Positions 20 to 60,078 of a DNA stretch of 64,000 nt are shown here, piece by piece. The DNA is from a virus, in IMG/VR virus record IMGVR_UViG_3300030117_007501, positions 1-64,000 of that record; one strand, written 5' to 3'. Under the pieces are notes generated by a model. The model worked only from the letters and a program-made list of their open reading frames with translations, had not been told where the DNA came from and did not search any database. Position 1 is the first letter of the stretch. Each line of letters opens with the position of its first letter. The translations under genes were made by a program, and so were the position numbers.

Positions 20-1150
20 ATGGTGGCAAAAATAACCAAAATCAAGACTGGTAAAGTTTCGTTTGAGCAAATGAAGTCTCTTGTCAACAAGAGAGCAGGC
101 TCCACTGTTGCTTATAGTCTTAAAGAAGATAATCCAACCGAGGTAAAGGAGTGGATTCCAACTGGCTCACGCTGGCTGGATTCAATCACGTGTAAAGGTA
201 AGTTGGCAGGTATTCCAGTAGGGAAGATATCAGAAATTGCAGGATTGGAGTCGACTGGTAAGAGCTTTATGGCAGCTCAGGTAGCAGCGAATGCTCAAAA
301 GATGGGAATTGACGTTGTGTACTTTGATTCTGAATCTGCAATCGATCCAGACTTTTTGGAACGCGCTGGCTGTGATTTAGAAAGGCTTCTATATACACAG
401 GCTCAGTCTGTTGAATTCGTACTGGAAACCATCGAAGATTTGTTGTCGACTGGCAATAAACTTTTATTCATCTGGGACTCGCTGGCGTTAACGCCATCAG
501 TATCAGATATTGCAGGGGACTTCAATCCCAATGCGGAAGTTGGCAAGAAAGCAAGGATTTTGTCTAAAGGCATGTCTAAGTTGGTTGTGCCCATTGCTAA
601 TGCGGATGCGACATTGCTAGTTCTTAATCAGTTAAAAACTAACATTACTCGCTCACCCACTGAGGCGCTGACAACGCCTTATATGACGCCTGGCGGCAAG
701 TCTTTACCATATTCCTATTCTTTAAGAATTTGGCTGACTGGCAGAAAGGCAAAAGCGTCCTTTGTGAAGGATGAAAACGGGTTTCGCATCGGCTCAGAGG
801 TGAAGGCAAAGATTGAAAAATCTCGTTTCGGCACCGCTGGAAGAATGTGCAACTTTAAGATTTTGTGGGGAGATAGTGGAGAAATCGGAGTCCAAGATAA
901 GGAAAGCTGGTTTGACGCCATCCAGATATCGGAAAATCTTAAGCAATCGGGTGCCTGGTTCGCCCTCGTTCATGAAGACGGAACTGAAGAGAAGTTTCAA
1001 CGCAAAGGTTGGCTAAGTAAGTTGGAAGACGAGAGGTTTTCCAACAGAGTTTTGCAGATAATTGATGAAGACGTCATTAAGAAGTTTTCTGATAGAACTG
1101 GCAAGGCTTCTGACTTTTATGAAACTGAAGAAACTGAGGTTAAGGACTGA
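20..1150 (+). CDS. recA: RecA/UvsX-like recombinase
   Basis: Walker A GLESTGKS, Walker B FIWDS, LNQL and TPGG motifs typical of RecA. Confidence 0.93.
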   Translation: MVAKITKIKTGKVSFEQMKSLVNKRAGSTVAYSLKEDNPTEVKEWIPTGSRWLDSITCKGKLAGIPVGKISEIAGLESTGKSFMAAQVAANAQKMGIDVVYFDSESAIDPDFLERAGCDLERLLYTQAQSVEFVLETIEDLLSTGNKLLFIWDSLALTPSVSDIAGDFNPNAEVGKKARILSKGMSKLVVPIANADATLLVLNQLKTNITRSPTEALTTPYMTPGGKSLPYSYSLRIWLTGRKAKASFVKDENGFRIGSEVKAKIEKSRFGTAGRMCNFKILWGDSGEIGVQDKESWFDAIQISENLKQSGAWFALVHEDGTEEKFQRKGWLSKLEDERFSNRVLQIIDEDVIKKFSDRTGKASDFYETEETEVKD

Positions 1151-3622: not shown

Positions 3623-5491
3623 ATGAAAGAACTATCTAATGAAATATTATCCGACATTACCGTGCACATGAAGTATGCAAGGTTTTTGCCTGCAGAGAAT
3701 AGAAGAGAAACTTGGAACGAGCTGGTGACTAGAAACATGAATATGCACCTGAAAAAGTATCCAGGGTTAGAACTACAGATTCGCAAGGCATACAAGTTGG
3801 TATATGATAAGAAAGTTCTTCCTTCCATGCGTTCGATGCAATTTGGTGGAAAGCCGATTGAAATTAATCCATCTCGAATTTTTAATTGCGCCTTTGTTGC
3901 TCTCGACGACTATAGGGCATTTAGCGAGTCGATGTTTTTGCTTCTCGGCGGCACAGGGGTTGGTTTTTCAGTTCAGAGGCACCACGTTGAAAAGCTGCCG
4001 GAAATAAGAAAGCCCACTTCAAGCAGAACCTACAGGTACCTCATTCAGGACAGTATTGAGGGCTGGGCAGACGCTGTTAAAGTGTTGATGGAAACTTACT
4101 ATGGATATCGCAATAGTCATATTCGGTTCGATTACGGAGACATCAGACAAAAGGGCGAAAGATTAGTTACTTCCGGAGGAAAGGCTCCTGGCCCTCAGCC
4201 GCTCAAAGAGTGTCTCCTAAAAATCAAAGGCATTCTGGAAAGCAAAGAAGACGGACAACAGCTTGAGACTATTGAAGCTCATGACATCATGTGCCATATC
4301 GCCGACGCTGTACTGGCGGGAGGAATTCGCAGAGCGGCAATGATTTCGCTTTTCTCAGCTGATGATAGTGAGATGATATCTGCAAAAACCGGTAGTTGGT
4401 GGGAGAAGAATCCACAAAGAGGCAGAGCAAACAATTCTGTAGTCATAATGAGACATAGGATAACGAAGGACACTTTTCTAGAGTTGTGGGAGAGGATACG
4501 TGCCTCTGGAGCCGGTGAACCAGGGTTTTCGTTCACTAACGACAAAGAACGAGGATTTAACCCGTGTCATGAAATTTCCTTAAGATCTTGTCAGTTTTGC
4601 AACTTGACGGAGATTAACGTTAGCGATATAGAAGATCAGAAGGACTTTGAAGAACGTGCACGTGTTGCTTCTTTTATAGGGACTTTGCAGGCAGGTTATA
4701 CGGACTTTCACTATTTGCGACCAGTTTGGCAAACAAACACGGACAAGGACGCACTTTTGGGAGTTAGCATGACTGGTATTGCCTCCGGTACGGTGTTGGA
4801 GCTTGACATGAAGGCTGCAGCAGCAATAGTAAAGAAGGAGAACGCTAGGGTGGCAGAGCTTATTGATATCTCACCAGCCGCGAGAACTACGTGCGTTAAG
4901 CCTGCAGGTACGACTTCTTTGGTGCTTGGTACATCGAGCGGAATTCACGCCTGGCATAACGACTATTATGTTAGAAGAATCAGAGTAGGGAAGAATGAGC
5001 CGATATATTCGTTTTTGGCTAAAAGCCATCCGGAACTAGTAGAAGACGAATATTTTCGTCCACACGATACGGCAGTGATTTCAGTCCCCCAAAAAGCGCC
5101 GGAGGGAGCTATCCTGAGAACAGAGTCTGCATTGCAGTTGCTGAAGAGGGTGAAGCACGTCACGGAGAATTGGGTTTTTCCCGGCGGCGGAAAGGGCCCA
5201 AACAACCATAATGTTTCTGCAACAATATCTCTCAAGGATTCTGAGTGGACAGACGTAGGCGAATGGATGTGGGAAAACAGAGAATCTTACACGGGACTTT
5301 CGGTACTTCCGTACGATGGTGGAAGCTATAAGCAGGCACCATTTGAGGACTGCTCCAGAGAGAGGTATGAGGCTCTTATGTCTTCGTTAAAAAACGTAGA
5401 TCTAACGAAGGTTTCAGAGTCGGAAGATAATACTGATTTGACTGGCGAAGCAGCTTGTGCTGGTGGAAGTTGTGAAATAAAGTTTCTATAG
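3623..5491 (+). CDS. nrdJ: class II (adenosylcobalamin-dependent) ribonucleotide reductase
   Basis: FNC, NPCHEI, CNLTE, TCVKPAGT, C-terminal CAGGSC; no beta subunit in the window. Confidence 0.88.
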   Translation: MKELSNEILSDITVHMKYARFLPAENRRETWNELVTRNMNMHLKKYPGLELQIRKAYKLVYDKKVLPSMRSMQFGGKPIEINPSRIFNCAFVALDDYRAFSESMFLLLGGTGVGFSVQRHHVEKLPEIRKPTSSRTYRYLIQDSIEGWADAVKVLMETYYGYRNSHIRFDYGDIRQKGERLVTSGGKAPGPQPLKECLLKIKGILESKEDGQQLETIEAHDIMCHIADAVLAGGIRRAAMISLFSADDSEMISAKTGSWWEKNPQRGRANNSVVIMRHRITKDTFLELWERIRASGAGEPGFSFTNDKERGFNPCHEISLRSCQFCNLTEINVSDIEDQKDFEERARVASFIGTLQAGYTDFHYLRPVWQTNTDKDALLGVSMTGIASGTVLELDMKAAAAIVKKENARVAELIDISPAARTTCVKPAGTTSLVLGTSSGIHAWHNDYYVRRIRVGKNEPIYSFLAKSHPELVEDEYFRPHDTAVISVPQKAPEGAILRTESALQLLKRVKHVTENWVFPGGGKGPNNHNVSATISLKDSEWTDVGEWMWENRESYTGLSVLPYDGGSYKQAPFEDCSRERYEALMSSLKNVDLTKVSESEDNTDLTGEAACAGGSCEIKFL

Positions 5492-5504: not shown

Positions 5505-6056
5505 ATGAAGAGAATATACAGGGAATGGAAGAAGTATTTGCTCAAGGAAGAGCTGGAGAAATACGTTGAAGGTGGAATGATAGAGTTGTTTCGTTTTTCA
5601 GCTCGAGATATGGACAAGATCCCTCTAGATCCAGAAAAGTTTCGAAGTGCTCGCATGTCTTATAGCAAGAATGATTACAATGTTTCTTCTTTCCCTAGAG
5701 TTTTCTTCTATTTGGATCCCTCACATCTGGAAACAGTCGTAGCAGGAGCTAAAAAAAACCTCTATTCTGTCAAAGTGTCGGCTTCTGACATATATGACTT
5801 AGTAGAGGATCCAGAAGACTTGTTGCACAAGTCGAAAAAGGCTTCGGGCATGGTAGTGCCTAATTTGGATAAAGTGTTGAAGTCCCTAGCTAAAGAAGAC
5901 AAGCCAGGGCTTTATCCAGAGTATTTCACCCCTATAAGGGATGAGGACGCACAAAGATATAAAGGTGTCTATTACCGAATAAACCAAGGAACAAAAGATA
6001 TTGTTATCTGGTTTGATAAAATAGAAGCAACAAGAGTAGAAAGAGAAGAAATATGA
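5505..6056 (+). CDS. hypothetical protein with W-type N-terminal leader (candidate virion-internal protein)
   Basis: 183-aa ORF starting MKRIYREWKKYLLKEE; GTAGTTAT immediately upstream. Confidence 0.6.
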   Translation: MKRIYREWKKYLLKEELEKYVEGGMIELFRFSARDMDKIPLDPEKFRSARMSYSKNDYNVSSFPRVFFYLDPSHLETVVAGAKKNLYSVKVSASDIYDLVEDPEDLLHKSKKASGMVVPNLDKVLKSLAKEDKPGLYPEYFTPIRDEDAQRYKGVYYRINQGTKDIVIWFDKIEATRVEREEI

Positions 6057-7655: not shown

Positions 7656-8358
7656 ATTGTTCGATGACGGCATCGGAGCCGTCGAGTATGTGTCTCACAT
7701 GGGCAGCGATTTAACTGTTGTTAACGCTGCTAGGGTTTCGTTTGGAGCTAACAAAGAGGAGTTGGACGAAAAGGATGTAAAGCTTATTAAGTATCTTATA
7801 AAGCACAACCACACTAGTCCGTTCGAGCACTGTAGTTTAACAATGAGGTTTACAGTGCCTCTCTTCATAAGAAGTCAGCACCACCGTCATCGAACTTGGG
7901 CATATAATGAGATTAGCAGGAGATATACTTCTGTTGATATGGAATTCTATGAACCAAGCGAGTTTAGAACTCAGCATAAGTCTAACAGACAAGCCAGTAA
8001 CGACGAGCTGATTAATCCTAATATCAGCCAAGTGGGTGGAAATAGGATATATCCATCGAGTGCTTATTATGCGTCAGAAGCGATAAAAAACCATCATACT
8101 AATAGCTTAAAGCTTTATGAGTCTCTTATCGGTTCTGGCGTATGTAGAGAGCAAGCAAGAGGAGTCCTTCCTCAAAATCTGTATACTCAGTATTATGGAA
8201 CTGTCAATCTTCACAATTTGTTGAAGTTCATTGGGCTACGCGTCCACAAGGGCGCTCAGTGGGAAATTCAGAAAGTTGCGCTCGCCTGCCTAGACATCGC
8301 GGGAAATTTTTTCCCAGAAGCTGTAGAGGCATATAGGGAAACATACACGGAGAAATAA
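7645..8358 (+). CDS. thyX: flavin-dependent thymidylate synthase
   Basis: AARVS, HTSPFEH, RHRTWAYNEISRRY, AQWEI. Confidence 0.96.
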   Translation: MRIELFDDGIGAVEYVSHMGSDLTVVNAARVSFGANKEELDEKDVKLIKYLIKHNHTSPFEHCSLTMRFTVPLFIRSQHHRHRTWAYNEISRRYTSVDMEFYEPSEFRTQHKSNRQASNDELINPNISQVGGNRIYPSSAYYASEAIKNHHTNSLKLYESLIGSGVCREQARGVLPQNLYTQYYGTVNLHNLLKFIGLRVHKGAQWEIQKVALACLDIAGNFFPEAVEAYRETYTEK

Positions 8359-10601
8359 TGAAAAACTTTTTATTTTTATTGATGGCAGTATCTCTGCTAG
8401 CATGCGAAGACTCGGCAAAGACGTCAGACAAGGGAAGACTTGGAGATGCCGGCAATACATTCGGAAGCAGCAATAACTCTGATTCTCGACTGAGAATCGA
8501 GGATGCATACATCGAACCAGACATTTACATAAGGCTGATAGATGCCCGCCCGATAGTTGATGCTGTCATCGACGCGGCACCTCCACCTATTGTCTGTGAG
8601 AGGTACGGACTGCGAGAATCGTGTGATCTTCCGGCTTTTCTTGGACCCTGTGCGCAGGGAGAGAGAATTTGCCATTCAACTAGTTGGACTCAATGTACGC
8701 AAGTTAACTTCCCTAGGATGGAGGTGTGCGATGACATCGACAATGATTGTGATGGAAACGTAAATGAATCCCCGCAACAACTTGGTGGTGGCGCACAATC
8801 CCCTATTCTGTTTAGAAGTTGTTACGAGGGCAGACAAGGTTCTTCGAAAAATGGAGTCTGCAGGCCTGGCATTTCTGTTTGCCAGCAGCTCGCGAGGGAG
8901 ACAGACGCAGGAATAGAGTTCTTTTATGGTTATGGTGAGTGTGAAAACCAAGTATTGCCAACAGAGGAAGAGTGCGATAGCTTGGACAACGACTGCGACA
9001 ACAGTACGGACGAAGGGGTGCTAAATATTTGTCAGCAATGCGGCCCAGATCCCGTCGAGGTGTGCGACGGTATTGATAACGATTGTGACGAAGGTGTCGA
9101 TGAAAACTTGTTGAATTCTTGTGGTGAATGTGGAGTCGATCCAATTGAGGAGTGCGACGGCATCGATAATGACTGCGACGGCGCAACTGATGAATTGTTG
9201 CTGAATGCTTGCGGTGCTTGCGGAGATGTCCCTCGGGAGCTTTGTGATTTTGTAGATAACGATTGTGATGGCGCTATTGATGAGGACTTTGAACCAGGCA
9301 GTTGTGACTGTGAACACCCCGATTATGTCCCACAGCCAGAAGTTTGCAATGGGGTAGATGAAGATTGTGATGGGTTTGTTGATGAAGGACCAGGGGGTGG
9401 CCCGTTAACGATGCTTTGCTCTACTGATATACCCACTGGAGAAGTCATTCTTTATGAAAGAAGAGAGGATGGTCCTCAGTACGTTGCCGGAGATTGTAGA
9501 CTGGGTGCAGCGTTCTGCGAATCCAGAAGAGACGAGAACGGCGCACTTGAATATGGTTTTTTTGAGTGCTTGCAGGAAGTTCGCCCCGGTATCGAGCGGT
9601 GCAACGAAGAAGACGATGACTGCGATGGAGATATCGACGAGGACTTCGAACAGGGAATGGTGGCTGTCATGATGGTTATCGATGTCTCTGGTTCGATGCA
9701 GCAAGGTGAGTTGTGGGCAGCGTTCGACGCTACCAGAAATACAGTAGAGCGACTTTTTAATGACGGTGTAGCGGATGTTTGTTATATGCTGGCTGTTGTG
9801 GGCAATGATGATATGTTTGATCCCTACCTATATGCCCCGGCCGACAATTGCGTCCCCGGAGTTGAAGATCCTCCAGTTGTTCCGGTTGAAGATATGCGAG
9901 CTGCAATTGATGGACTTAGAGGTGCGATTAATGCGGGCATAGTTAACAGGGGTGGTGGCACGGAAAACACGCTAGATGCAATCGGCATGTTCCTAACAGA
10001 CGACTTAATCGACTGGGATAACGACGGAAACCCTGATGAGGTGCTGTGGAGCACGAACCGTCCAGACGCTCAATTGAGGGGAATCGAAGACTCTTGGACT
10101 GTAGACTTGAGCAGGTATAATCATCGTATTGTGGTTGTGTTGGGAGATGAGCGAGCCCAGGGAGTGAATTTTGATGCGTTCGCAGTTCAGCACGCAATGT
10201 TTATGGCAGGTGGGATGGTGTTCATCATCGGCCCTGATAATATTTTCGTCAGGCAAAGTTATGATCCTCTCTACGATGCCGGAGGGCAATATAGGAACGC
10301 AAGAGTCGGTGGCCCTCCTGGGCAGAACGAACAGGAAGTTCAGGATGCCGTGGTAGAGGCAATAGAGGAAGCAGCATGTATACAGGGAAGGCAGCAGCGT
10401 GATAATCCTGACGCAGGAGTGGAAGATGCAGGAGTTCAGGACGCAGGCGTTCCAGACGCCGCCCTTCCAAACGATGTAGGCGTTGACGCAGGTGCCGATT
10501 CGGGAATGGCATGTTACGAGCCAAAAAAAAAAGAAACATTCTTATGCGAAGGTTTTTACACGGTGGCTATGAATTGGCATCATATGAGGATGTGCTTCTA
10601 A
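8358..10601 (+). CDS. lipoprotein with MopE-like Cys/Asp repeats, vWA domain and DAG linkers
   Basis: lipobox LLAC; about 7 repeats of ExCDxxDNDCDGxxDE; MIDAS DVSGS; C-terminal PDAGVEDAGVQDAGVPDA. Confidence 0.85.
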   Translation: MKNFLFLLMAVSLLACEDSAKTSDKGRLGDAGNTFGSSNNSDSRLRIEDAYIEPDIYIRLIDARPIVDAVIDAAPPPIVCERYGLRESCDLPAFLGPCAQGERICHSTSWTQCTQVNFPRMEVCDDIDNDCDGNVNESPQQLGGGAQSPILFRSCYEGRQGSSKNGVCRPGISVCQQLARETDAGIEFFYGYGECENQVLPTEEECDSLDNDCDNSTDEGVLNICQQCGPDPVEVCDGIDNDCDEGVDENLLNSCGECGVDPIEECDGIDNDCDGATDELLLNACGACGDVPRELCDFVDNDCDGAIDEDFEPGSCDCEHPDYVPQPEVCNGVDEDCDGFVDEGPGGGPLTMLCSTDIPTGEVILYERREDGPQYVAGDCRLGAAFCESRRDENGALEYGFFECLQEVRPGIERCNEEDDDCDGDIDEDFEQGMVAVMMVIDVSGSMQQGELWAAFDATRNTVERLFNDGVADVCYMLAVVGNDDMFDPYLYAPADNCVPGVEDPPVVPVEDMRAAIDGLRGAINAGIVNRGGGTENTLDAIGMFLTDDLIDWDNDGNPDEVLWSTNRPDAQLRGIEDSWTVDLSRYNHRIVVVLGDERAQGVNFDAFAVQHAMFMAGGMVFIIGPDNIFVRQSYDPLYDAGGQYRNARVGGPPGQNEQEVQDAVVEAIEEAACIQGRQQRDNPDAGVEDAGVQDAGVPDAALPNDVGVDAGADSGMACYEPKKKETFLCEGFYTVAMNWHHMRMCF

Positions 10602-10602
10602 A

Positions 10603-11859
10603 ATGAGAAAGATAATCATACTTTTAACACTTTTTATTGCATGTGAGGATAATGCGGTGCCTACAACGCCTGTGGAGCTTGATAGTAGAGTGAGAGATGT
10701 TTCGGCTCAACCAGTTGATGTGTTTGTTGTGCCTGTTCCATTCATTGATATGCTTGTTAGCAATGTCGATATGGCGTCCCAAGTATGCTCTGAAGAGCTG
10801 TGTGATGCTCTTGATAATGACTGTGACGGAAAGCAGGATGAGGGCACATTTAATTGCAATACGGCATGTGGAGCTGGGGTGGCTCAATGTAGTGGGGGTA
10901 CGCTTGTCGATTGTACTGCGCCACCAGTATTTGAAGAATCATGCAATCTTGTCGACGATGACTGCGACGGAACGGTAGACGAGCTTTTAGTTAGGTTTTG
11001 TTATTCAGGACCCCTCAAAGCTGCTGGCGTCGGAAATTGCTCTGAGGGAGAACAGGTTTGTGAAAATGGCACTTGGGGAAACTTCGAAAATGACGCTTGG
11101 GTGCAAGACTTGTGCTTAGGCGAAGTGCACCCTTCTGCAGAAGTTTGCGATGGATTGGATAATGACTGCGACGGCGTGGTGGATTTCGGGGAAGGCATCC
11201 GTAACACAGATATTCTTTTTATCGTTGATTGGTCGAGTTCGATGGGTGTGCGGGTAAGCGCCACTCTCGAGGCATTGCAGAGGTTCTCAACGGAGTTCGC
11301 AGACGAGCAGGTAATTCAGTGGGGGTTGATAGTGGGCCCAATACCTGTGTTTGACGAGGAGAACCCTAGAGACAGGTATGAGATGTTGAGGTTGGTTTCC
11401 GATATTTCTCCCTTCAATGACTTCCTTAATCGCTTTCTTGAGCTTGAAAGAATCCATACGGGCGGAGTTGAGATGCTTTTAGACGCTGTATATCTATCTC
11501 TGAGAAACGTTAGTCAGGTTCAGGTTCACGATTTAAATCAATCTAGGTGGACTGGTGGTGCCGTATCTTCGCCTCTGTTGTCTGAGTTTTTCGTTAATTG
11601 GAGGAATGGTGCTGATAAGATTATAGTTTTATTTTCAGACGAGCCAGAGAGAACTTATATGAATCCGCCAAACACAATACATGTTGTGGGCCCAGCGCTC
11701 ATGTCAGCTGAGAGGTTAAAGATGCACACTTTTGCACTGGGGTTTTATGGATGGGACGAGTTGGCTATAGCCACTGGGGGAAGAAACTTCGAATTGTCAA
11801 GTGATGCAGACAGTATGTATGACAACCTCATGACTATCGTTTCAGGAGCGTGCCAATGA
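10603..11859 (+). CDS. paralogous lipoprotein with MopE-like repeats and vWA domain
   Basis: lipobox FIAC; 3 ExCxxxDxDCDG repeats; MIDAS DWSSS; FSDE. Confidence 0.85.
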   Translation: MRKIIILLTLFIACEDNAVPTTPVELDSRVRDVSAQPVDVFVVPVPFIDMLVSNVDMASQVCSEELCDALDNDCDGKQDEGTFNCNTACGAGVAQCSGGTLVDCTAPPVFEESCNLVDDDCDGTVDELLVRFCYSGPLKAAGVGNCSEGEQVCENGTWGNFENDAWVQDLCLGEVHPSAEVCDGLDNDCDGVVDFGEGIRNTDILFIVDWSSSMGVRVSATLEALQRFSTEFADEQVIQWGLIVGPIPVFDEENPRDRYEMLRLVSDISPFNDFLNRFLELERIHTGGVEMLLDAVYLSLRNVSQVQVHDLNQSRWTGGAVSSPLLSEFFVNWRNGADKIIVLFSDEPERTYMNPPNTIHVVGPALMSAERLKMHTFALGFYGWDELAIATGGRNFELSSDADSMYDNLMTIVSGACQ

Positions 11860-37616: not shown

Positions 37617-38180
37617 ATGAGGCGCTGCCGAACAGAGGAAATGTGGAACGCGATAACGCACTCTTTTGGTTTAGGCATGTGCCTGTCTTTCTTCATGGTG
37701 GGAGACATCCAGACAAGAGTCATTACATCGATGCTATGTCTTACGTATTTGTTTTCGGTGTTGTATCACGGCACAGAGAAACAGTCAATAAAAAATACAT
37801 TTAGAATGATGGACATGGCTTCGATACATGCCACCATAGCATGCACTTCTGTCTCATATCTGATTATTGGCGACGCTGGTATCTTTCCGGCGATAGTGTG
37901 CCTTGTAGCCGGCGCAGCTGGAAGCCAGTTCGTAATAGCGAGCTATGGAACTACTTTCTTGGAAAGGACTGCCGTATTTTCGTTTGTAGCAAATGGTGTC
38001 TTGTGCTTGATGCTGATTGTCTTTTGTACATCATCGTTGTCTCCATACTTTGTTGTTGGATCCGTAGTGTACCTGTTGGGTTTGCGATTCTATGTACATG
38101 ATTACATAAGATTCTACCATACTGTGTGGCATGTTTTTGTATTGGTTGCGTCACTTATACATGTGCTCGGTACTATGTAA
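37617..38180 (+). CDS. hemolysin III / PAQR family membrane protein
   Basis: EEMWNAITH, SVLYH, D..SI, HTVWHVFV. Confidence 0.85.
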   Translation: MRRCRTEEMWNAITHSFGLGMCLSFFMVGDIQTRVITSMLCLTYLFSVLYHGTEKQSIKNTFRMMDMASIHATIACTSVSYLIIGDAGIFPAIVCLVAGAAGSQFVIASYGTTFLERTAVFSFVANGVLCLMLIVFCTSSLSPYFVVGSVVYLLGLRFYVHDYIRFYHTVWHVFVLVASLIHVLGTM

Positions 38181-38183
38181 TGT

Positions 38184-38381
38184 ATGGAAGAGTACGAAAT
38201 AGGGGATTTGGTAGTCTCGTATCTGTTCAACACGTCTATGCTTGAACCGGAGCTGTTGCAGTTTGGAGTCATAGTCAACGTCAATAGAAATCTCAGAGAC
38301 ATTATGGTTCTTGACAATGCTGGATACAAGAGATGGTACCCCTGTAGACGCTGGCGCATCTTAAGGAAGAAGAACACGTGA
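38184..38381 (+). CDS. small SH3/KOW-like protein
   Basis: YEIGDLV...FGVIV. Confidence 0.5.
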   Translation: MEEYEIGDLVVSYLFNTSMLEPELLQFGVIVNVNRNLRDIMVLDNAGYKRWYPCRRWRILRKKNT

Positions 38382-38463
38382 TGGATTTTTTGATATCGTA
38401 CGGACTGACGTTAGCTTTGTTAGTTCTGCTCGGAGAACTCTTTTTTGGTGTGTCAAAAAAGTC

Positions 38464-38492
38464 TTGACAATTTAAAAAAAATCATTTAAGAT
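38464..38492 (+). promoter_or_regulatory. sigma70-type promoter
   Basis: TTGACA-N17-TAAGAT. Confidence 0.7.
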
Positions 38493-38516
38493 AATAAAAA
38501 AGTTTGGAGATTTCAT

Positions 38517-48760: not shown

Positions 48761-48958
48761 TAACAAGAGGGGTGTTTATGTTTTTTGCGAAAGTTAGAGA
48801 GGTGGTGTCTAGACTACCTGCCGAAAAGAGGATAGCTCTTCATAATATGCTCGCACTGCCGCTGATTACTATCGGCAGCACTTTCTTAGCAGGGGGTAGG
48901 CTAATATATGAGCCGACTAGCAGAACCAAGAGGATTGGTTTCCGTTCGGAGCAGACGA

Positions 48959-49195
48959 ATGATTGAATATGCCCGAGGCATGATTGTGGAAATCACAGAA
49001 GACTATGATGTTTTCGGGCAAAATGCTAGAGGCATGAGAGGAGAGATTCTACGCCCCTATAGCATAGACAGGACAGAGAAAAATAAACATGAAACGGTGA
49101 GAGTAGTAAAGCACCTAATTTACATCGAGGAGATTGATGCGTACTGCGAACCGCGTGAGGAATGGCTCATAATCATAGACAGGGATGTGCCCTAG
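48959..49195 (+). CDS. small SH3/KOW-like protein
   Basis: ARGMIVEI...RGEIL. Confidence 0.45.
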   Translation: MIEYARGMIVEITEDYDVFGQNARGMRGEILRPYSIDRTEKNKHETVRVVKHLIYIEEIDAYCEPREEWLIIIDRDVP

Positions 49196-49296
49196 TGCGC
49201 CAGTATTGACGTCTAACGAGAGTTTCTATGGTGATTCGTCTCTAGGTATGCACTCTGGGCAACAAAGCCTTAAAAGCATCAAATTTCATTTTTTTC

Positions 49297-49325
49297 TTGA
49301 TTTTTAAAAAAAAGAAATATATAAT
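49297..49325 (+). promoter_or_regulatory. sigma70-type promoter driving array 2
   Basis: TTGATT-N17-TATAAT. Confidence 0.7.
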
Positions 49326-49350
49326 TGTTTTAATGGTTGAGGGGGCAAGG

Positions 49351-50411
49351 ATGAAAGTTGGTGACTTGGTTCAATGGAGCGACACCAGCATTGCCTGGCA
49401 CCTCGCTAAAGGTTACCCTGTGCAGGATTTTCTTCACCATCGTCAACGAGGGATAATTTTCAGCGAGAACAAGAAGTATGTTTTCGTGTATTGGGGCGAC
49501 GGAGAAAGAATGGCAGAAGAGCGGGATTGGCTGGAGGTTGTCAGTGAAAGTAGGTGATTTGGTGAGACACAAGCGTAGAAACTGGAACGCTCTTATCGTG
49601 ACTGTTGATCAGCCTCGAAGACACATTAAGATTCTCGATGAGGAGGGCAGTGTGTTCTGGGAAAGAATGAGAGATTACGAGGTTATCAGTGAAAGTCGGT
49701 GATTTAGTTATAACTAAGGCATCTATCGGAGACGGGAATCGTCGGCTTGCGCTGCGAGAAGGCGTAGGCGTCTTGTTTCAAGCTGATTACAACCTAATGA
49801 TACTCTGGCCAAATGGCTTCATAGAGAACTCATGCGTCTATTTTGAGCACGAATTGGAGGTTGTCAGTGAAAGTCGGCGATTTAGTAAAATACAGGATGT
49901 ATCATAACAACCTACAGTCACTCTTGGGAATTGTTTTGCGCACGAGTAGGGACAAAGAGAGAGTAAGAGTTCTTTGGAATCGAATCGACAGAAATGATGA
50001 CGTGATGGATTGGGTAGAAGATTTGGAGGTTGTCAGTGCAAGTCGGTGATTTGGTTAAGTGGACTGATGGACATGGCGAAGAGTTTTACGCCCTAGTGGT
50101 TAAACGTGATGGCTGGGCGACACTAATAAAGTGGACTTCTTCCGGCGAAGTAGAAGACGCTGACTACTATATCGAAAGCGACGTCGCAGAGAATGAAGTA
50201 TGGGAGGTAATCAGTGAAGCTCGGTGATATGGTTCAGCCGCTTGGCTCATGCTCTGGCATGCTCGGCGCTGTTCGGTGCAAACTAGCACTGGTTGTGGAG
50301 AAGGTTAACCCACACCATGATCAGGTTAAGATTGCCTGCCTATGTGGTTCTAAGTGGGCAATGAAACATAATGTACGCTCTATAGAAAAAAGAGAGGATA
50401 TCTGGGAATGA
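49351..50411 (+). CDS. array 2 of MKVGD mini-genes (49351-49557, 49544-49702, 49689-49907, 49867-50049, 50036-50227, 50214-50411)
   Basis: each starts M(K/Q)(V/L)GD(L/M)V; the first five carry EV(V/I)S(E/A)(S/A)R at the junction. Confidence 0.8.
49533..50233 (+). repeat. junction repeat, array 2
   Basis: GGAGGTWRTCAGTGAAAGTCGGTGATTTRGT-like copies at about 49533, 49679, 49856, 50025 and 50203. Confidence 0.92.
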
Positions 50412-50617
50412 GTCGTAAAGAAACTGTAGATTATGATAGGCTATTGGTTGTCGCAGAAAAGGCTGAGTTAGCGTTCTGGGAGGTTGTGGGAAAAAGCTAC
50501 CCAGAGGCTACGTACGGATGCTTTCCCTTTGATGCTCAATTTGAATTCAGCATGGCATTAGAGACAGCAATTGAAATTTGGGTGGACGCGAACGTGCCCC
50601 CTGCGCGGGAGGACTAG
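50408..50617 (+). CDS. hypothetical protein
   Basis: ATGA overlap; AFWEVV...YPE motif. Confidence 0.5.
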   Translation: MSRKETVDYDRLLVVAEKAELAFWEVVGKSYPEATYGCFPFDAQFEFSMALETAIEIWVDANVPPARED

Positions 50618-50618
50618 T

Positions 50619-50897
50619 ATGTACGACATTGAAGTACCAACAGAAAAAGAATTACGCCGCAACGTGCTCGGGCAAGGTGTGAAAATCCTTCATGCCCTGA
50701 TGCGACACTACAGTTCGGGTTCTATCGAAGTGCCTGAGCACAACGATGTGTTCATGGGACTAATGGTTCTGCTGTGCGAGGGCAAAATCAAGGGAGAGTA
50801 CACCGACGATGGTGAGGTTCGGTGGGTAATGACAGAGAAAAAGGAAGCCAACTACGGAAACGTAATCAGGTTTCCACTAACCAAAGGGGTAGAGTGA
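50619..50897 (+). CDS. hypothetical protein
   Basis: GGAGG RBS before ATG 50619; C-terminal NVIRFP. Confidence 0.5.
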   Translation: MYDIEVPTEKELRRNVLGQGVKILHALMRHYSSGSIEVPEHNDVFMGLMVLLCEGKIKGEYTDDGEVRWVMTEKKEANYGNVIRFPLTKGVE

Positions 50898-51166: not shown

Positions 51167-51238
51167 GGAGCGCTGGCGCAATGGTAGCGCATCGGACTTT
51201 TAATCCGCTGGTTCAGGGTTCGAGTCCCTGGCGCTCCA
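51167..51238 (+). tRNA. tRNA-Lys (UUU)
   Basis: GGAGCGC/GCGCTCC acceptor stem; CGGA-CTTTTAA-TCCG; GTTCGAGTC; promoter TTGATT(51123)-N17-TATAAT. Confidence 0.93.
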
Positions 51239-51425
51239 CATACACGAGGAGAATGGTGAATGGGGCTTTCGAGCGTAGCTAGTGTGAGGAGATTGGCGAA
51301 CATGTGGGTTGATTTATCACCCAAGAGACAAGACGAACTCTTAAGCGAACTTGATGCCCCACTGAGAGAATCAGTTGTAGAGAGAATGAGAGAGATAAAG
51401 AATGAAAGAAAGAGGAGCAGCAAAG

Positions 51426-55105: not shown

Positions 55106-55127
55106 AATACCAATATTGGGAGCCGGT

Positions 55128-56204
55128 ATGAAAATCACAAAGAAAAACTTAATGAATATGATTAAAGCACAACTTGAAGAGGTGCTTAGCGACGATGATA
55201 GATTTAGAGATTTGCCAGGATATGAAGAGTATACAGATGGCGAGAAATTGAAAAGAAGACGCAAGAAAAAGCCGGCAGATGATAATCCAGACGAAAGATG
55301 GCGCGAAGACGATCCGATATTCCGGAGCCACCTAGAAGAAGAGCTAACATCGGAAGGTTGGATAGATTCAGTTAAAAGCGCCATGGGATTCGGAAGCCCC
55401 AAGAAAGGAAAAAGCCTAGAAGAGCTAATGCAGGAAACAATCGAGGCAGCAGAGCCGCTCGAGCCAGTAGGCAGAGAACGAATGGATCCAGCAGGGTACC
55501 CAGGATTTAACGCTATAGCATCAGCGTTTGGCAGAGGAGCATATGCCGGAGCGGGACATGATGCAGTACTAGAGCTAGATACAAAGATTCTAACTATAGC
55601 CGGCATGGTAGAGGGCGTATACGCAGCTGCAGCCGGTGCGCAAAAGGAAGCTGTCGCGGCAGGAGCTAGTGAAGAAGACGCTCAGCGCGCATACCAAGAG
55701 GCATGGGCAAACATATCAAACGACGTACGTACAAAGTTCATGCACGTCGAATTGAGTGTTAAGACATACGAGATGGTATACCGAAACCAGTACATAATCC
55801 CTTATATAAAAAAGAATTCTCCTGACGGCATTAAGAAAGCCGCAAAGGAAAGAGAAAAAGCCAGAAGAACGTTCGAGATAAACGCCGCATGGATATCAAA
55901 CTTAGAGTTGGGCAAATCTTTAAGATTGGGCGCTGCAGCGCGCGGACAAAAATTAGAGGAAAATATCATGAAAATTTCGAAAAACAAGCTTAAGAATATG
56001 ATTAAAGAAGAATTGGAAGAAGCTATGGCGCAACCTTCCCTAAGAGACGTGGCAGCTAGCTTGCAAGACGCAGCTGCAATATTGGTAACCGGCAAAGTAC
56101 TCGAGGCACTGCAATCCAGCGGTAACATGGAAGAGTACCTCGAGGCAGATATGATATTCAGAAAACTGCTAGACTTAAAAGATGCGGTAAGGAATAAAGA
56201 ATGA
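55128..56204 (+). CDS. MKIT-leader protein with a second internal leader
   Basis: MKITKKNLMNMIKAQLEE at 55128 and MKISKNKLKNMIKEELEE at 55968. Confidence 0.65.
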   Translation: MKITKKNLMNMIKAQLEEVLSDDDRFRDLPGYEEYTDGEKLKRRRKKKPADDNPDERWREDDPIFRSHLEEELTSEGWIDSVKSAMGFGSPKKGKSLEELMQETIEAAEPLEPVGRERMDPAGYPGFNAIASAFGRGAYAGAGHDAVLELDTKILTIAGMVEGVYAAAAGAQKEAVAAGASEEDAQRAYQEAWANISNDVRTKFMHVELSVKTYEMVYRNQYIIPYIKKNSPDGIKKAAKEREKARRTFEINAAWISNLELGKSLRLGAAARGQKLEENIMKISKNKLKNMIKEELEEAMAQPSLRDVAASLQDAAAILVTGKVLEALQSSGNMEEYLEADMIFRKLLDLKDAVRNKE

Positions 56205-56647
56205 GAGCATTGATTGCAGCATTAGTTATAATCATGATGGCTGCTGCAACAGTAATTAGCTGCTCTTCTGCTCCCCCAACACCTAGAAATGCCGAATTAA
56301 CAGTTACATACTACGGCAAAGAAATCAAAAAAGAAAAACCCACATGGACAAATGAATCACGTTTAAGAGAAGTGCTTAAAAAACCCGGAAAAAAATTTCT
56401 GGTTTTTGGAGCTGATTGGTGTGACGCATGCAAGTTTTTGCGCCGCGCATTGCGCGAGGGAAATCTCCACAGCGCAGTCGAAAACCTGAATATCGATGTA
56501 CGCTGGGTTAATGCTATAGCAAGTATATACGGAATTAAATCAGTACCTACACTGCTAGCCTTAGACTCAAATAACAATATTGTTGCTGTTCGCGAAGGCG
56601 CCGGCCCAATAACTGTTTATCTTTTATTGAATATCGACATTAAATAA
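56201..56647 (+). CDS. thioredoxin-like lipoprotein
   Basis: lipobox VISC; FGADWCDAC; SVPT. Confidence 0.8.
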   Translation: MRALIAALVIIMMAAATVISCSSAPPTPRNAELTVTYYGKEIKKEKPTWTNESRLREVLKKPGKKFLVFGADWCDACKFLRRALREGNLHSAVENLNIDVRWVNAIASIYGIKSVPTLLALDSNNNIVAVREGAGPITVYLLLNIDIK

Positions 56648-56682
56648 CTACTTATACTGTACGCTTAAGGAGCTTAACTATC

Positions 56683-56886
56683 ATGAAAATCACAGAATCA
56701 AAACTGCGCTCTATCATTAACGAAGAAATCAAAAAAGCGCTGGTTAAAAATATCGAAGAAGGAAGCTTTGATCCCGGACATCTTAAGACTGTCCCTTCGG
56801 GCGTTGATCCCGCCGTTGGCGAGTGGGTTATCGACGAGCTTAACCTTATATGGAGTAAAATAAAGGAGCTGCAAAGCAGAGCTTAA
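56683..56886 (+). CDS. MKIT-leader protein
   Basis: MKITESKLRSIINEE. Confidence 0.65.
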   Translation: MKITESKLRSIINEEIKKALVKNIEEGSFDPGHLKTVPSGVDPAVGEWVIDELNLIWSKIKELQSRA

Positions 56887-56888
56887 TT

Positions 56889-57218
56889 ATGAAAATTAAA
56901 AAAGAACAACTAGATCAAATTATTGCTGAAGAAATCAATAGTGTTGTCGAAGAGAGTGAAAACCTCGAAGAAGGCTTTTTTAGTACTATCGCCGGGCTTG
57001 GCTTGGCTTATTGGCTTGTCAAAACTTTACTGGGTAAAAGAATCGCTGCGCAGATAGAAGAAGATCCTGAACTTCGAGACGCTGTTGATCAAGGCAACAA
57101 AGAAATTGAAAATGCAATGAACCAAATTTCATCTCCTGAGTCTCGTCAACGCCTTAAAGACGATGTTTCCGGTTTGTTGAGTGATATTGCCGCTGCAATC
57201 AAGAAGAGGCTCGGCTAA
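56889..57218 (+). CDS. MKIT-leader protein with hydrophobic helix
   Basis: MKIKKEQLDQIIAEE...LEEGFFSTIAGLGLAYWLV. Confidence 0.65.
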   Translation: MKIKKEQLDQIIAEEINSVVEESENLEEGFFSTIAGLGLAYWLVKTLLGKRIAAQIEEDPELRDAVDQGNKEIENAMNQISSPESRQRLKDDVSGLLSDIAAAIKKRLG

Positions 57219-57219
57219 G

Positions 57220-57582
57220 ATGACGTCATCGCGACTTCAAGCTATAATTGAGGAAGAAATCGGCAAGTATCTCATTGAAGCCGGTGCTTCTCAACTTATC
57301 GGCGATTACAATATCGATGTTATAACTGAAGACAAAGAATGCATATACGCATTAAACGTTGTCAAGAAGTATGTCGATCGACGCGGAGGATGGCAGTTTA
57401 GTGAACCTGAATACGCTCAAATAGGTAATATATTATCTGAGGCTATCTCTCTCATCAAAACTATAATCGACAAAAAGGAGGCTGCTAAGCCTCCTGTTTC
57501 CCCTCCACCTTTAAGGATGCCTGCTGATCCTGATGCGCAGGTGGCTCCTCTGCGTCTGACGCGTTCAACGAAATTCGCTTAA
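57220..57582 (+). CDS. leader-bearing hypothetical protein
   Basis: MTSSRLQAIIEEE. Confidence 0.55.
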   Translation: MTSSRLQAIIEEEIGKYLIEAGASQLIGDYNIDVITEDKECIYALNVVKKYVDRRGGWQFSEPEYAQIGNILSEAISLIKTIIDKKEAAKPPVSPPPLRMPADPDAQVAPLRLTRSTKFA

Positions 57583-57610
57583 TTAATTTAATTAACTTAT
57601 AGTTATTTCC

Positions 57611-57829
57611 ATGTCAACATTGCTAATAATTATTAACTGTGCTATAATGTCCATATGGACTGCTTGCTTGGTATACACACACATCAAGCTTGTCAATAGC
57701 GCTATTAAGCAATTCGAAGAGCAAAACAACAATCTAACTAAAGAACTTGAAAAGCAAAGAAAAACAAAAACATTCAACATGCGTAATACAACTATTGCCG
57801 AACCTGAAGGCAAAGAGTTTTATTATTAA
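57611..57829 (+). CDS. small TM + coiled-coil protein
   Basis: N-terminal TM helix. Confidence 0.45.
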   Translation: MSTLLIIINCAIMSIWTACLVYTHIKLVNSAIKQFEEQNNNLTKELEKQRKTKTFNMRNTTIAEPEGKEFYY

Positions 57830-57840
57830 GGAAGCACACC

Positions 57841-58032
57841 ATGAAGATTGAAATTGGTACCCTCATAACCATCATCACCCTAAGCATTGCTATCGGTGGA
57901 GCATATTATTCAATGTCTGATAATATCTCTGATCTCGAGACTAAAGTCGCCATTTTGGAAAAAACAATCAAAAAGTGCAAATGTGGGCATAAAAAAATTT
58001 CCCCGCGAAAAAAATCAAAATTTCGCGACTAA
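57841..58032 (+). CDS. small TM + coiled-coil protein
   Basis: N-terminal TM helix, LETKVAILE. Confidence 0.5.
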   Translation: MKIEIGTLITIITLSIAIGGAYYSMSDNISDLETKVAILEKTIKKCKCGHKKISPRKKSKFRD

Positions 58033-58059
58033 TTACAACATAACTTAAGGAACTCATTA

Positions 58060-58491
58060 ATGAAACTCAAAACTTCATATATTAAAAAAATTATCCGCGA
58101 AGAAATCGATTCGAATCTTCCCGACTCCAACAGGTGGCGAGACTTTTGGCTAAATGGGCCGGGTGGGCAATTTGCTGATTCTGATGATACCACCCGGCGC
58201 ATTGTCGAGCTTTTTGTTCAAGACTTGCGCAAAATGACTGCGCATGCGGATGCTGTTATTGAGAAGTCTGAGTGGAGTAGCGGGCCCGACAATGCTGCTT
58301 TCTTTCGCATGCGTGAGTTTATGAGAAGCAAGTGGTTTGGCAAAACGGGGATTCTGTCCACCAACATGCCACCCCGCTCTTCGGAGTTTCTCCAGAACTA
58401 TAAAGATTGGGGCATGCCATCGTGGGGAGAGAGTCGTTCCGCAGCTCAGTGGGCTCAGACAGACTTTTTTCACAATTGGTTGGGAGAATAA
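58060..58491 (+). CDS. MKIT-leader protein
   Basis: MKLKTSYIKKIIREE. Confidence 0.6.
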   Translation: MKLKTSYIKKIIREEIDSNLPDSNRWRDFWLNGPGGQFADSDDTTRRIVELFVQDLRKMTAHADAVIEKSEWSSGPDNAAFFRMREFMRSKWFGKTGILSTNMPPRSSEFLQNYKDWGMPSWGESRSAAQWAQTDFFHNWLGE

Positions 58492-58492
58492 C

Positions 58493-58654
58493 ATGTGCAT
58501 TATATGTATTGAGCTTGAAAAAGACAAACTCACAGCTTCAGAGGCGTTTCGAAACTTTTGGGAAATGAAGGACTCAATTGAAGAAGAGCATATCGAGGAA
58601 GTTACCGAAGCTATACTTACAGCATTTCACGAAGAACTTGGAGAAGAACAATGA
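58493..58654 (+). CDS. small CxxC protein
   Basis: GGAG RBS; MCIICIE...KLTASEAFRN..EM. Confidence 0.55.
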   Translation: MCIICIELEKDKLTASEAFRNFWEMKDSIEEEHIEEVTEAILTAFHEELGEEQ

Positions 58655-58941
58655 AAAAAGAAGATATAATTAAAATGATTCAAGAGGAAGTAACTCAAAT
58701 TTTGAATGAACATTCTCCTGATGACTTCTCAGATCTGGAAGGGCGAGAGGAGACTAGCTGGGAACCAGATGAGGTTGGTGATGTTATACAAGCTGGAGTG
58801 ACTGCTGTTGTTGAAGCTCTTTACTCATATGATCCAAGCCAGGATGCTCTCGATGCATTAGAATTACAGGTTAAAGAAGCTTTGTCATCCATTAGGGGCG
58901 GAGTTATCGAAGACATTGTGTCAGGTAAAGCGAGGATATGA
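58651..58941 (+). CDS. leader-bearing hypothetical protein
   Basis: MKKEDIIKMIQEE..ILNE. Confidence 0.55.
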   Translation: MKKEDIIKMIQEEVTQILNEHSPDDFSDLEGREETSWEPDEVGDVIQAGVTAVVEALYSYDPSQDALDALELQVKEALSSIRGGVIEDIVSGKARI

Positions 58942-59192
58942 AGTGGGGCGTTAAAATATTAACGCTTTTATTTATTTTCTCCTTCCTGCCTATCTCTGCG
59001 TCTGCTCAAAATAAAGATGCAAAAACAAAATTTTATAACTTCGACGACTTACTTATCGACGGTAAAGTGCAGAAACCAAAAGTACTTTGGGTGGATGCAC
59101 GCCAGAAAGTCAAATTCGAAAAGCTTTTAAAGCTAAAAAAAGATTTCATGCCCAAGCTCTTAGGCACAAGAAAAGACATGTCTCTTCGATAG
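58938..59192 (+). CDS. CglF/GltF-like secreted small protein
   Basis: signal peptide ASA-Q; FYNFDDLLIDGKVQKP...ARQKVKFEKLLKLKKDFMPKL. Confidence 0.6.
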   Translation: MKWGVKILTLLFIFSFLPISASAQNKDAKTKFYNFDDLLIDGKVQKPKVLWVDARQKVKFEKLLKLKKDFMPKLLGTRKDMSLR

Positions 59193-59263
59193 CCGATTTT
59201 ATTCAAGATTACAGAAAAACAAACTAGTTATTATATTAATATTGAAAAGGAGTTCATAATATT

Positions 59264-59731
59264 ATGAAAATTACCAAGAAAACACTTGAGAAAATGATAA
59301 GAGAGTCTCTCGAGGATAGATTTAATGTAAGCGAAGAAGCAGCACCTGACGTGGTTGACATGTCTTCTTCCTCGCTTCCCGGAGAAGTTAAGAGAGTCCT
59401 CAATATACCGAGAGCAGACGAGATACTTGCTTCGCTAGCAGATGCCATTGAAGCTCAAAAGTCTCCTCAAATAAAGGCAAACGTATACACTCTTATATTA
59501 CAAGCCATCGGATTGGATACTGTAGACGAACTGCAGGCATTTCGCAGTCTCATCCAAACCCGACTAGCTAAGGCAGAAAGCGAAGGCGCGAAAGAATCAG
59601 AACTAGCACAAGCAGAGACGTCAGCACCACCACCGGTTGATAGCGCAGCAGACTTAGAAGAGAATAAGCAATTTGCCGCCGTACTCAAAAAACTAGTGCA
59701 GCAGGAAATTAAAAACACTACTAGAAAGTAA
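59264..59731 (+). CDS. MKIT-leader protein
   Basis: MKITKKTLEKMIRESLE. Confidence 0.65.
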   Translation: MKITKKTLEKMIRESLEDRFNVSEEAAPDVVDMSSSSLPGEVKRVLNIPRADEILASLADAIEAQKSPQIKANVYTLILQAIGLDTVDELQAFRSLIQTRLAKAESEGAKESELAQAETSAPPPVDSAADLEENKQFAAVLKKLVQQEIKNTTRK

Positions 59732-59745
59732 TCGGAGATATAACA

Positions 59746-60078
59746 GTGAATATAACAAAAAACACGTTAAAGTATCTGATAAAAGAAACAATGTACGATA
59801 TGGTTAATGCTAAGACTCCCGATTCCTCATCGTACATAGAAGACGAAGTTTCCAAAGAAGCTGAACGAGAAATCTCTTGGGGGAAAGTTCTGGACTCCCT
59901 TAACCCCCAAAGAGAAGAAAATAGCGAGCATTTTAGAAACATTGTCCTTAAAGCTATGACTCTCGCAGCTGAAGAAAATTCAGAATTTTTGTTGGACATG
60001 ATGGAAGATATCACAGATGATTCTGAGGTTAGAAATATACTAATGAATCATATCGAAAAGATATTTAAAAATGAATAA
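59746..60078 (+). CDS. MKIT-leader protein
   Basis: MNITKNTLKYLIKE. Confidence 0.6.
   Translation: MNITKNTLKYLIKETMYDMVNAKTPDSSSYIEDEVSKEAEREISWGKVLDSLNPQREENSEHFRNIVLKAMTLAAEENSEFLLDMMEDITDDSEVRNILMNHIEKIFKNE

Follow-up and report, generated by a model that had tools for sequence, protein, structure and literature searches.

Why should six small genes of a T4-type phage, lying in tandem behind a single promoter-like site, be joined to one another by almost the same short stretch of DNA? The sequence-only reading of this locus took that stretch for a recombination handle, shared with a second array, through which whole genes could be exchanged, with expression perhaps set by position relative to the promoter as in integrons. 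Its underlying observation is confirmed: a promoter-like site, six genes, five repeats and a read-through copy are all present. The window analysed here is the first 64 kb (64,000 nt) of a 158,282-bp virus contig that is 87% complete; its terminase, portal and prohead protease genes match phrog_2, phrog_213 and phrog_207, and a DNA polymerase gene is also present in the genome. Its relatives measure 185-203 kb and come mostly from marine metagenomes, going by those record names that give a source. A DNA search of 50,697 GenBank phage records returned no match and no cultured relative, and in the search for cultured relatives the best match to the phage's RecA was 34%. Below, L-numbers denote related loci, G000 the phage's own genome and G001 the genome of a relative. 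The features concerned are as follows.

20 to 1150, plus strand: RecA/UvsX-like recombinase gene of the phage
41656 to 42747, plus strand: array 1, six genes of the same kind, with four full junctions and one ATGA half-site
48956 to 49195, plus strand: left flanking gene, conserved, which anchors the site (82% in L119, 62% in L121)
49286 to 49325, plus strand: sigma70-type (early) promoter-like site with a 5' T-tract, of a repeated promoter family; the same site is conserved in L119
49339 to 49371, plus strand: 5' half-site (ribosome-binding site and MKVGDLV codons of gene 1), with no upstream gene overlapping
49351 to 49557, plus strand: cassette gene 1, 68 aa, an SH3-like barrel into which a helix is inserted; its family has 12 members, found in first, middle and last positions
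49532 to 49564, plus strand: junction 1, with ribosome-binding site, GTG start, upstream stop at +11 and 14-nt overlap
49544 to 49702, plus strand: cassette gene 2, 52 aa, 88.7% identical in DNA to an L022 cassette that has other neighbours
49677 to 49709, plus strand: junction 2
49689 to 49907, plus strand: cassette gene 3, 72 aa, ending in a read-through tail of 10 residues; no near relative was detected
49855 to 49887, plus strand: junction 3, the read-through variant (upstream TGA changed to CGA)
49867 to 50049, plus strand: cassette gene 4, 60 aa, with one relative at 44% identity (L126)
50024 to 50056, plus strand: junction 4
50036 to 50227, plus strand: cassette gene 5, 63 aa, an SH3/Tudor-like barrel of five strands that belongs to a family of 13
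50202 to 50234, plus strand: junction 5, with two mismatches to the consensus
50214 to 50411, plus strand: cassette gene 6, 65 aa, cysteine-rich, with no 3' junction and an ATGA overlap with the next gene
50408 to 50617 and 50619 to 50897, plus strand: two right flanking genes, conserved

The proposed promoter (49297-49325) reads TTGATT-17-TATAAT and matches the consensus at 10 of 12 positions; about 15-20 similar AT-rich sigma70-type promoter-like sites head small-gene modules between 30198 and 53878. Behind it run the six ORFs that had been counted, of 52-72 aa and spanning 49351 to 50411. Their starts are of the MKVGD type in general, the exceptions being genes 5 and 6, which begin MQVGD and MKLGD. 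The five repeats start at 49534, 49679, 49857, 50026 and 50204 (spacing 145, 178, 169 and 178), and array 1, which lies 6982 bp away where about 7 kb had been estimated, holds four more (41824, 42196, 42362 and 42552). When searched with a 24-nt pattern at up to 3 mismatches, the window gives these nine matches, as compared with 0 in each of 100 shuffles, and no further copy was found elsewhere in the 158-kb genome.

Each junction is about 33 nt of coding DNA, running from -12 to +21 of a gene start, and contains the Shine-Dalgarno sequence GGAGG, a GTG or ATG start and the MKVGDLV codons, while its -1 frame encodes E-V-I/V-S-E-S-R and the stop of the upstream gene, with an overlap of 14 nt. 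The same junction is present about 1,700 times in 332 related loci, which were sampled by the junction pattern and are all metagenome assemblies. Of 1,978 starts that were picked by protein sequence alone from the 332 loci and the window, 1,433 are overlapped by an upstream gene, with the upstream stop exactly at +11 in 1,398. The repeat does normally supply the stop, as had been supposed from the single copy that reads CGGCGA. In that copy, at 49857, the upstream TGA is indeed lost while the downstream change is silent (Gly GGT to GGC), and ORF3 reads on for ten more residues, so that the overlap there grows to 41 nt. Such read-through variants make up 35 of the 1,433 overlapped junctions. 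The final residues are dispensable, since relatives of gene 1 terminate at differing points past the last strand. We found no description of the junction in the literature, our coverage of which is incomplete.

The junction is conserved at the DNA level beyond what the proteins need, even where no upstream frame overlaps it. GTC encodes the third residue, Val3, at 83% of overlapped starts and at 60-64% of those without overlap, but valine in gene bodies at only 21% and Val7 at 5-7%; similarly, glycine is encoded by GGT at a frequency of 0.68-0.74 at starts without upstream overlap, against 0.30 in bodies. A separate ribosome-binding site (-7 to -12 kcal/mol) is present in each junction, and no promoter was found within the junctions, the only one standing at the head of the array. 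A promoter-like site lies upstream of fewer than 1% of internal genes, and free-standing chain heads have one within 110 nt in only about 12% of cases. As regards the suggested gradient of expression with position, these features, like the spread of the large families over first, middle and last places, are neutral for an array of 1.1 kb. The predicted folding of the 100 nt that precede the promoter is no more stable than that of shuffled sequences (z +1.3). A candidate internal terminator at 49745-49769 was rejected, such structures occurring at chance level (19 found, 12.5 +/- 3.9 expected).

Is the repeat used as a handle? One line of evidence comes from the neighbours of closely related genes. 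In pairs that are not identical and whose downstream genes share at least 95% identity, the upstream gene is unrelated in 44 of 62 at junctions and in 2 of 23 at ordinary boundaries; at 90% identity the counts are 88 of 120 and 4 of 40. The ordinary boundaries were taken from the same loci, and the pairs compared are not independent. In 94 + 88 pairs, the switch of identity between the two neighbours falls within the junction itself, and cassette families are found beside many different neighbours. Near-identical genomes bear out the proposal that whole genes are exchanged at the repeat. G001 and record 3300025131_000047 have a backbone that is more than 99% identical, and yet array 1 differs between them by at least three replacements and array 2 by a replacement and a reordering, all with breaks at junctions or half-sites. 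L071 and L075 differ by the insertion or deletion of a single cassette, L069 and L108 by an adjacent swap, and L199 carries an X-Y-X duplicate whose copies are 98.7% identical. Related phages thus gain, lose, replace and reorder whole genes at the junction, as judged by comparison of their sequences.

Exchange between arrays, which had been predicted, is seen as a cassette pair of 83% identity split across the two arrays of G001. Similarly, the expectation that the same cassettes would turn up in different arrays of related phages is borne out: relatives of genes 1 and 2 share arrays with relatives of array-1 genes, and in L022 the 88.7% relative of gene 2 precedes a relative of an array-1 gene. 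The description of the second array as independent therefore stands for transcription only, because both arrays draw on one cassette pool. Homogenisation between the two arrays was not borne out. Identity at variable sites is 0.583 within an array, 0.545 between arrays of one locus and 0.545 between loci; junctions are slightly more alike within an array, which points to one clade-wide consensus with no special pairing of the two. The cassettes are not fixed in place, large families being found at first, middle and last positions. Nor are the bodies recent tandem duplicates, their DNA identity being 0.45 against 0.42 +/- 0.045 for shuffled sequences.

Since every sequence is a metagenome assembly, the apparent shuffling might be chimerism, created when assemblers join mixed genomes at a short repeat. 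We consider this very improbable. The same arrays were recovered from separate samples (L083/L084, L100/L114, L040/L063, L065/L103 and L080/L110), an imperfect repeat of 33 nt is far below read length, and the moved cassettes bear point differences of their own, with a dN/dS of 0.17.

A second alternative accepts the exchanges but regards them as incidental and unfavoured, the repeat being a by-product of old tandem duplication held in place by the constraints of protein, ribosome-binding site and overlap. Two reading frames and the Shine-Dalgarno sequence do explain most junction bases, mutual information is confined to within codons, and some silent sites (-5, +20) vary freely. However, neighbour swaps are in eightfold excess over ordinary boundaries, other silent sites are fixed by position without a second frame, and near-identical genomes are reordered. 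This account covers the origin of the junction rather than its use, and conflicts with our preferred explanation only on whether shuffling is selected; we judge it unlikely.

The site can be compared in two relatives. The flanks of L119 are 78% (left) and 72-87% (right) identical to those of the window, and its site holds three genes, namely two unrelated cassettes and a last gene that is 34% identical to gene 6. Homology between L119 and the window ends with the final base of gene 1's MKVGDLV codons, where the half-site at 49339..49371 also ends. In L121 the flanking genes adjoin and the array is absent. Two near-identical promoters bracket the array of L119 (L119:4104-4160 and 4719-4775), and since the second of them follows the array, an exchange between promoters, as in PeSLs (promoter-early stem-loops), may have founded it. 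The paired promoters are possibly a second, PeSL-like handle.

What, then, carries out the exchange? An integron-type machine, which the likeness to integrons would suggest, finds no support: we detected no tyrosine or serine recombinase, no covariation of a hairpin and no fixed crossover. The tyrosine recombinase family PF00589 is absent from the phage's own genome (0/1, 87% complete) and from all complete relatives (0/5), with 14 of 14 control genomes positive, and the serine recombinase family PF00239 is absent from five genomes, comprising the phage's own and four complete relatives. A weak inverted arm in the consensus had made an attC-like or start-codon-hiding hairpin a candidate, but among 417 non-redundant junctions no covariation was found and pairing equals expectation; as DNA, the five copies fold at 0 to -2.9 kcal/mol and inconsistently among themselves. 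A model with one fixed crossover fits worse than a spread by 58 log units, a value that did not exceed -40 in fixed-point simulations. The spread is also narrower than uniform (58 observed, against 102-204 in uniform-spread simulations). Hence crossovers are concentrated on the most conserved central bases and tail off around them, the distribution expected of recombination over short homologies. The same pattern may also reflect a preferred crossover near +4 to +6 that later events have blurred.

RecA is present in 5 of 5 genomes, and the phage's own genome carries RuvC-like and SbcC-like genes. With these present and recombinases and hairpin absent, the array is not an integron, and the RecA/UvsX-like protein is the likely catalyst of exchange. 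In searches that covered the tyrosine, serine and ERF types, no ERF protein was found in the phage's own genome or in four complete relatives. An imperfect homology of about 30 nt is short for RecA-type exchange. T4 recombination is cited as needing patches of under 50 bp (PMC2839356). Identity is 91-98% in the moved cassettes and 99% in their flanks. Because the cassettes diverge more than their flanks, most exchanges would take place between co-infecting genomes, with cassettes imported from other lineages.

Part of this evidence could also be read as the work of an unrecognised, dedicated phage recombinase or targeting protein that acts on the junction core in a programmed, integron-like way, possibly through circular single-gene intermediates. 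Crossovers cluster near +4 to +6 more tightly than under a uniform spread, the silent sites of the core 14-mer are conserved at non-overlapped starts as well, and turnover is fast in relation to backbone divergence. On the other hand, besides the absence of both recombinase families from the complete relatives, of a covarying or consistent fold and of a fixed crossover point, no gene constantly adjoins the arrays, whose flanks change among loci, and the greater divergence of moved cassettes fits import rather than excision and re-insertion in place. We regard such an enzyme as improbable. Its fullest form, in which an unrecognised protein would target the core for an integrase-free, programmed sampling of more than 1,000 SH3-like counter-defence or host-takeover proteins, appears improbable to the same degree.

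We conclude that the locus is probably a recombinase-independent gene-cassette array of SH3-like barrel genes, which has a coding handle and is shuffled by general phage recombination. The first strand (MKVGDLV) and the last (E-V-I/V) are constant throughout the very diverse barrel family, and these gene ends, lying in overlapping frames, form the junction of about 33 nt that gives ribosome-binding site, start and upstream stop. In the proposed mechanism, RecA/UvsX, with an SbcCD-like nuclease and a RuvC-like resolvase, would cross over at any two junctions, since all are alike, and mostly in the conserved central 14-20 nt. The breakpoints are observed, and the enzymes are putative. Each crossover would leave whole genes with start and stop signals intact, and because the junction encodes the first and last strands, each barrel would stay whole. 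Unequal crossing-over would presumably yield gains, losses and X-Y-X duplicates. The array would be co-transcribed early from the host sigma70-type promoter, with its genes translationally coupled.

Integrons consist of an IntI integrase, an attI site, attC sites and a cassette array behind a Pc promoter. The array resembles them in its promoterless single-gene units, which lie in tandem behind one promoter with a common site between units, and in a large open pool whose order changes between genomes. It differs in that neither IntI nor any other tyrosine recombinase was found, in the absence of an attC-like hairpin and of a fixed crossover, and in that cassettes show no sign of entering preferentially at the first position, the site is coding and there are several arrays per genome. 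The layout is thus integron-like, but the array fails three tests that define an integron.

The PeSLs of T4-type phages come closer, and their authors likewise drew the integron analogy (PMC2839356; PMC4122927). There too a repeated handle lies in variable early regions, single ORFans are inserted, deleted or replaced at it, and general recombination was proposed, no integrase having been found (PMC2839356; PMC4122927). The same is seen here, where the ORFan gains, losses and replacements of close relatives break at the handle in a T4-type phage without an integrase. A PeSL, however, is an intergenic promoter and terminator of about 100 bp, making one transcription unit of each cassette, with unrelated cargo (PMC2839356; PMC4122927), whereas the handle of the array is about 33 nt, lies wholly inside two overlapping frames and has neither promoter nor stem-loop, and the genes it joins form a polycistronic chain and belong to one fold family. 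In addition, mini-circles have been shown for PeSLs (PMC2839356; PMC4122927). The array therefore works like PeSL shuffling but is not a PeSL, its handle being without promoter and stem-loop. The T-even IP loci and the Botstein-Campbell 'linker' are also alike, in that small variable genes are swapped via short conserved flanks that preserve expression signals (PMC2839356). IP elements are promoter-based and their proteins are packaged (PMC2839356); in contrast, the array is linked by a start/stop overlap that codes in two frames, and its proteins showed no capsid-targeting signal.

The proteins are more readily placed by fold than by family. Genes 1 and 5 are predicted by AF2 (pLDDT 88) to form SH3-like barrels of five strands each, and their best structure matches are NdhS, the Mib repeat, KOW, YorP (2HEQ) and Tudor, at middling Z scores of 6-7 (best 7.0), which are uninformative as to function, and sequence identities below 25%; the other matches are viral proteins without names. 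No named family was found for the array proteins in Pfam, PHROG, PADLOC or the ESM Atlas, with KOW, Tudor and Phage_tudor considered and only sub-threshold Pfam matches (e.g. YccV-like, 17.5 bits against a cut-off of 22.8). The likeness to the KOW (NusG/Spt5), Tudor, NdhS and YorP barrels thus lies in the five strands and the Z of 6-7, while the array barrels differ in being stand-alone proteins of 50-75 aa with about 1,000 families in one phage clade. They are under purifying selection (dN/dS 0.17 over 151 pairs), and grouping of 1,956 proteins yields 1,028 families, of which 731 are singletons, without reaching saturation. Since the genes sit in a variable region that is rich in sigma70-type promoters, their likeliest role is in binding host targets early in infection; we give about even weight to the proteins being small early binders of host proteins or nucleic acids that serve host takeover or counter-defence, which is the weakest step of the explanation. 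T4 MotB, an early protein with a predicted KOW domain that acts on the host (PMC7827196), may be a loose precedent by analogy.

The array is an unusually clean case of modular evolution in phages. As the handle consists of the genes' own overlapping ends, each crossover gives intact, expressed genes, and every new gene carries in a new handle. Two 99%-identical genomes differ in several cassettes, so the turnover of accessory genes can be measured in marine metagenomes. The pool amounts to a large natural library built on a single small fold and kept under purifying selection, which could readily be screened for host-takeover or anti-defence activities.

Several further observations concern the surroundings of the arrays. 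Free-standing genes of the same kind lie near array 1 (39443-41473 and 42901); about a dozen genes with an xKxGDxV N-terminus and no junction stand around it (38184-43110), and others of this type occur at 6053, 29968, 33722, 51940 and 52499. They are possibly stranded older cassettes. Directly after array 1, the ORF at 42744-42896 opens with an MKVGD half-site followed by a predicted helical, charged sequence unlike the barrels, and is perhaps an unrelated gene captured by the handle. Genes for a haemolysin-III-related membrane protein and a UvdE UV-endonuclease lie 5' of array 1 (37617-39443), and between the arrays an AAA ATPase (AAA_5) is paired with a DUF2201 metallopeptidase/VWA gene (45992-48595), kept in most relatives. 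An Rfam scan of 39-52 kb detected three tRNAs only; tRNAs (tRNA-Arg, -Thr and -Lys) lie near the variable region, at 39674-39825 and 51167-51239, and a tmRNA at G000:C1:75359-75662. L119 has no tRNA at the position of the window's 51167, other DNA being inserted there instead.

As regards the host, two lipoproteins with cysteine-aspartate repeats are encoded at 8358-11859, with PF11617 confirmed in the first (8358-10601). We take PF11617 and such repeats to be typical of myxobacteria, which would hint at a host among the Myxococcota. The junction also occurs in seven GTDB genome records of unrelated taxa (L206-L212; Deltaproteobacteria, Flavobacteriales, Legionellales, WOR-3 and others), which are probably phage contigs binned into MAGs rather than hosts. 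Elsewhere, at 55116-59786 and at 73-78 kb of the genome, many unrelated proteins begin alike, with MKITKxxLxxMI-type or MKLIMENW-type tags that may be capsid-targeting leaders. Finally, nearly every gene of the phage lies on one strand, and GC skew is positive over the full 158 kb.
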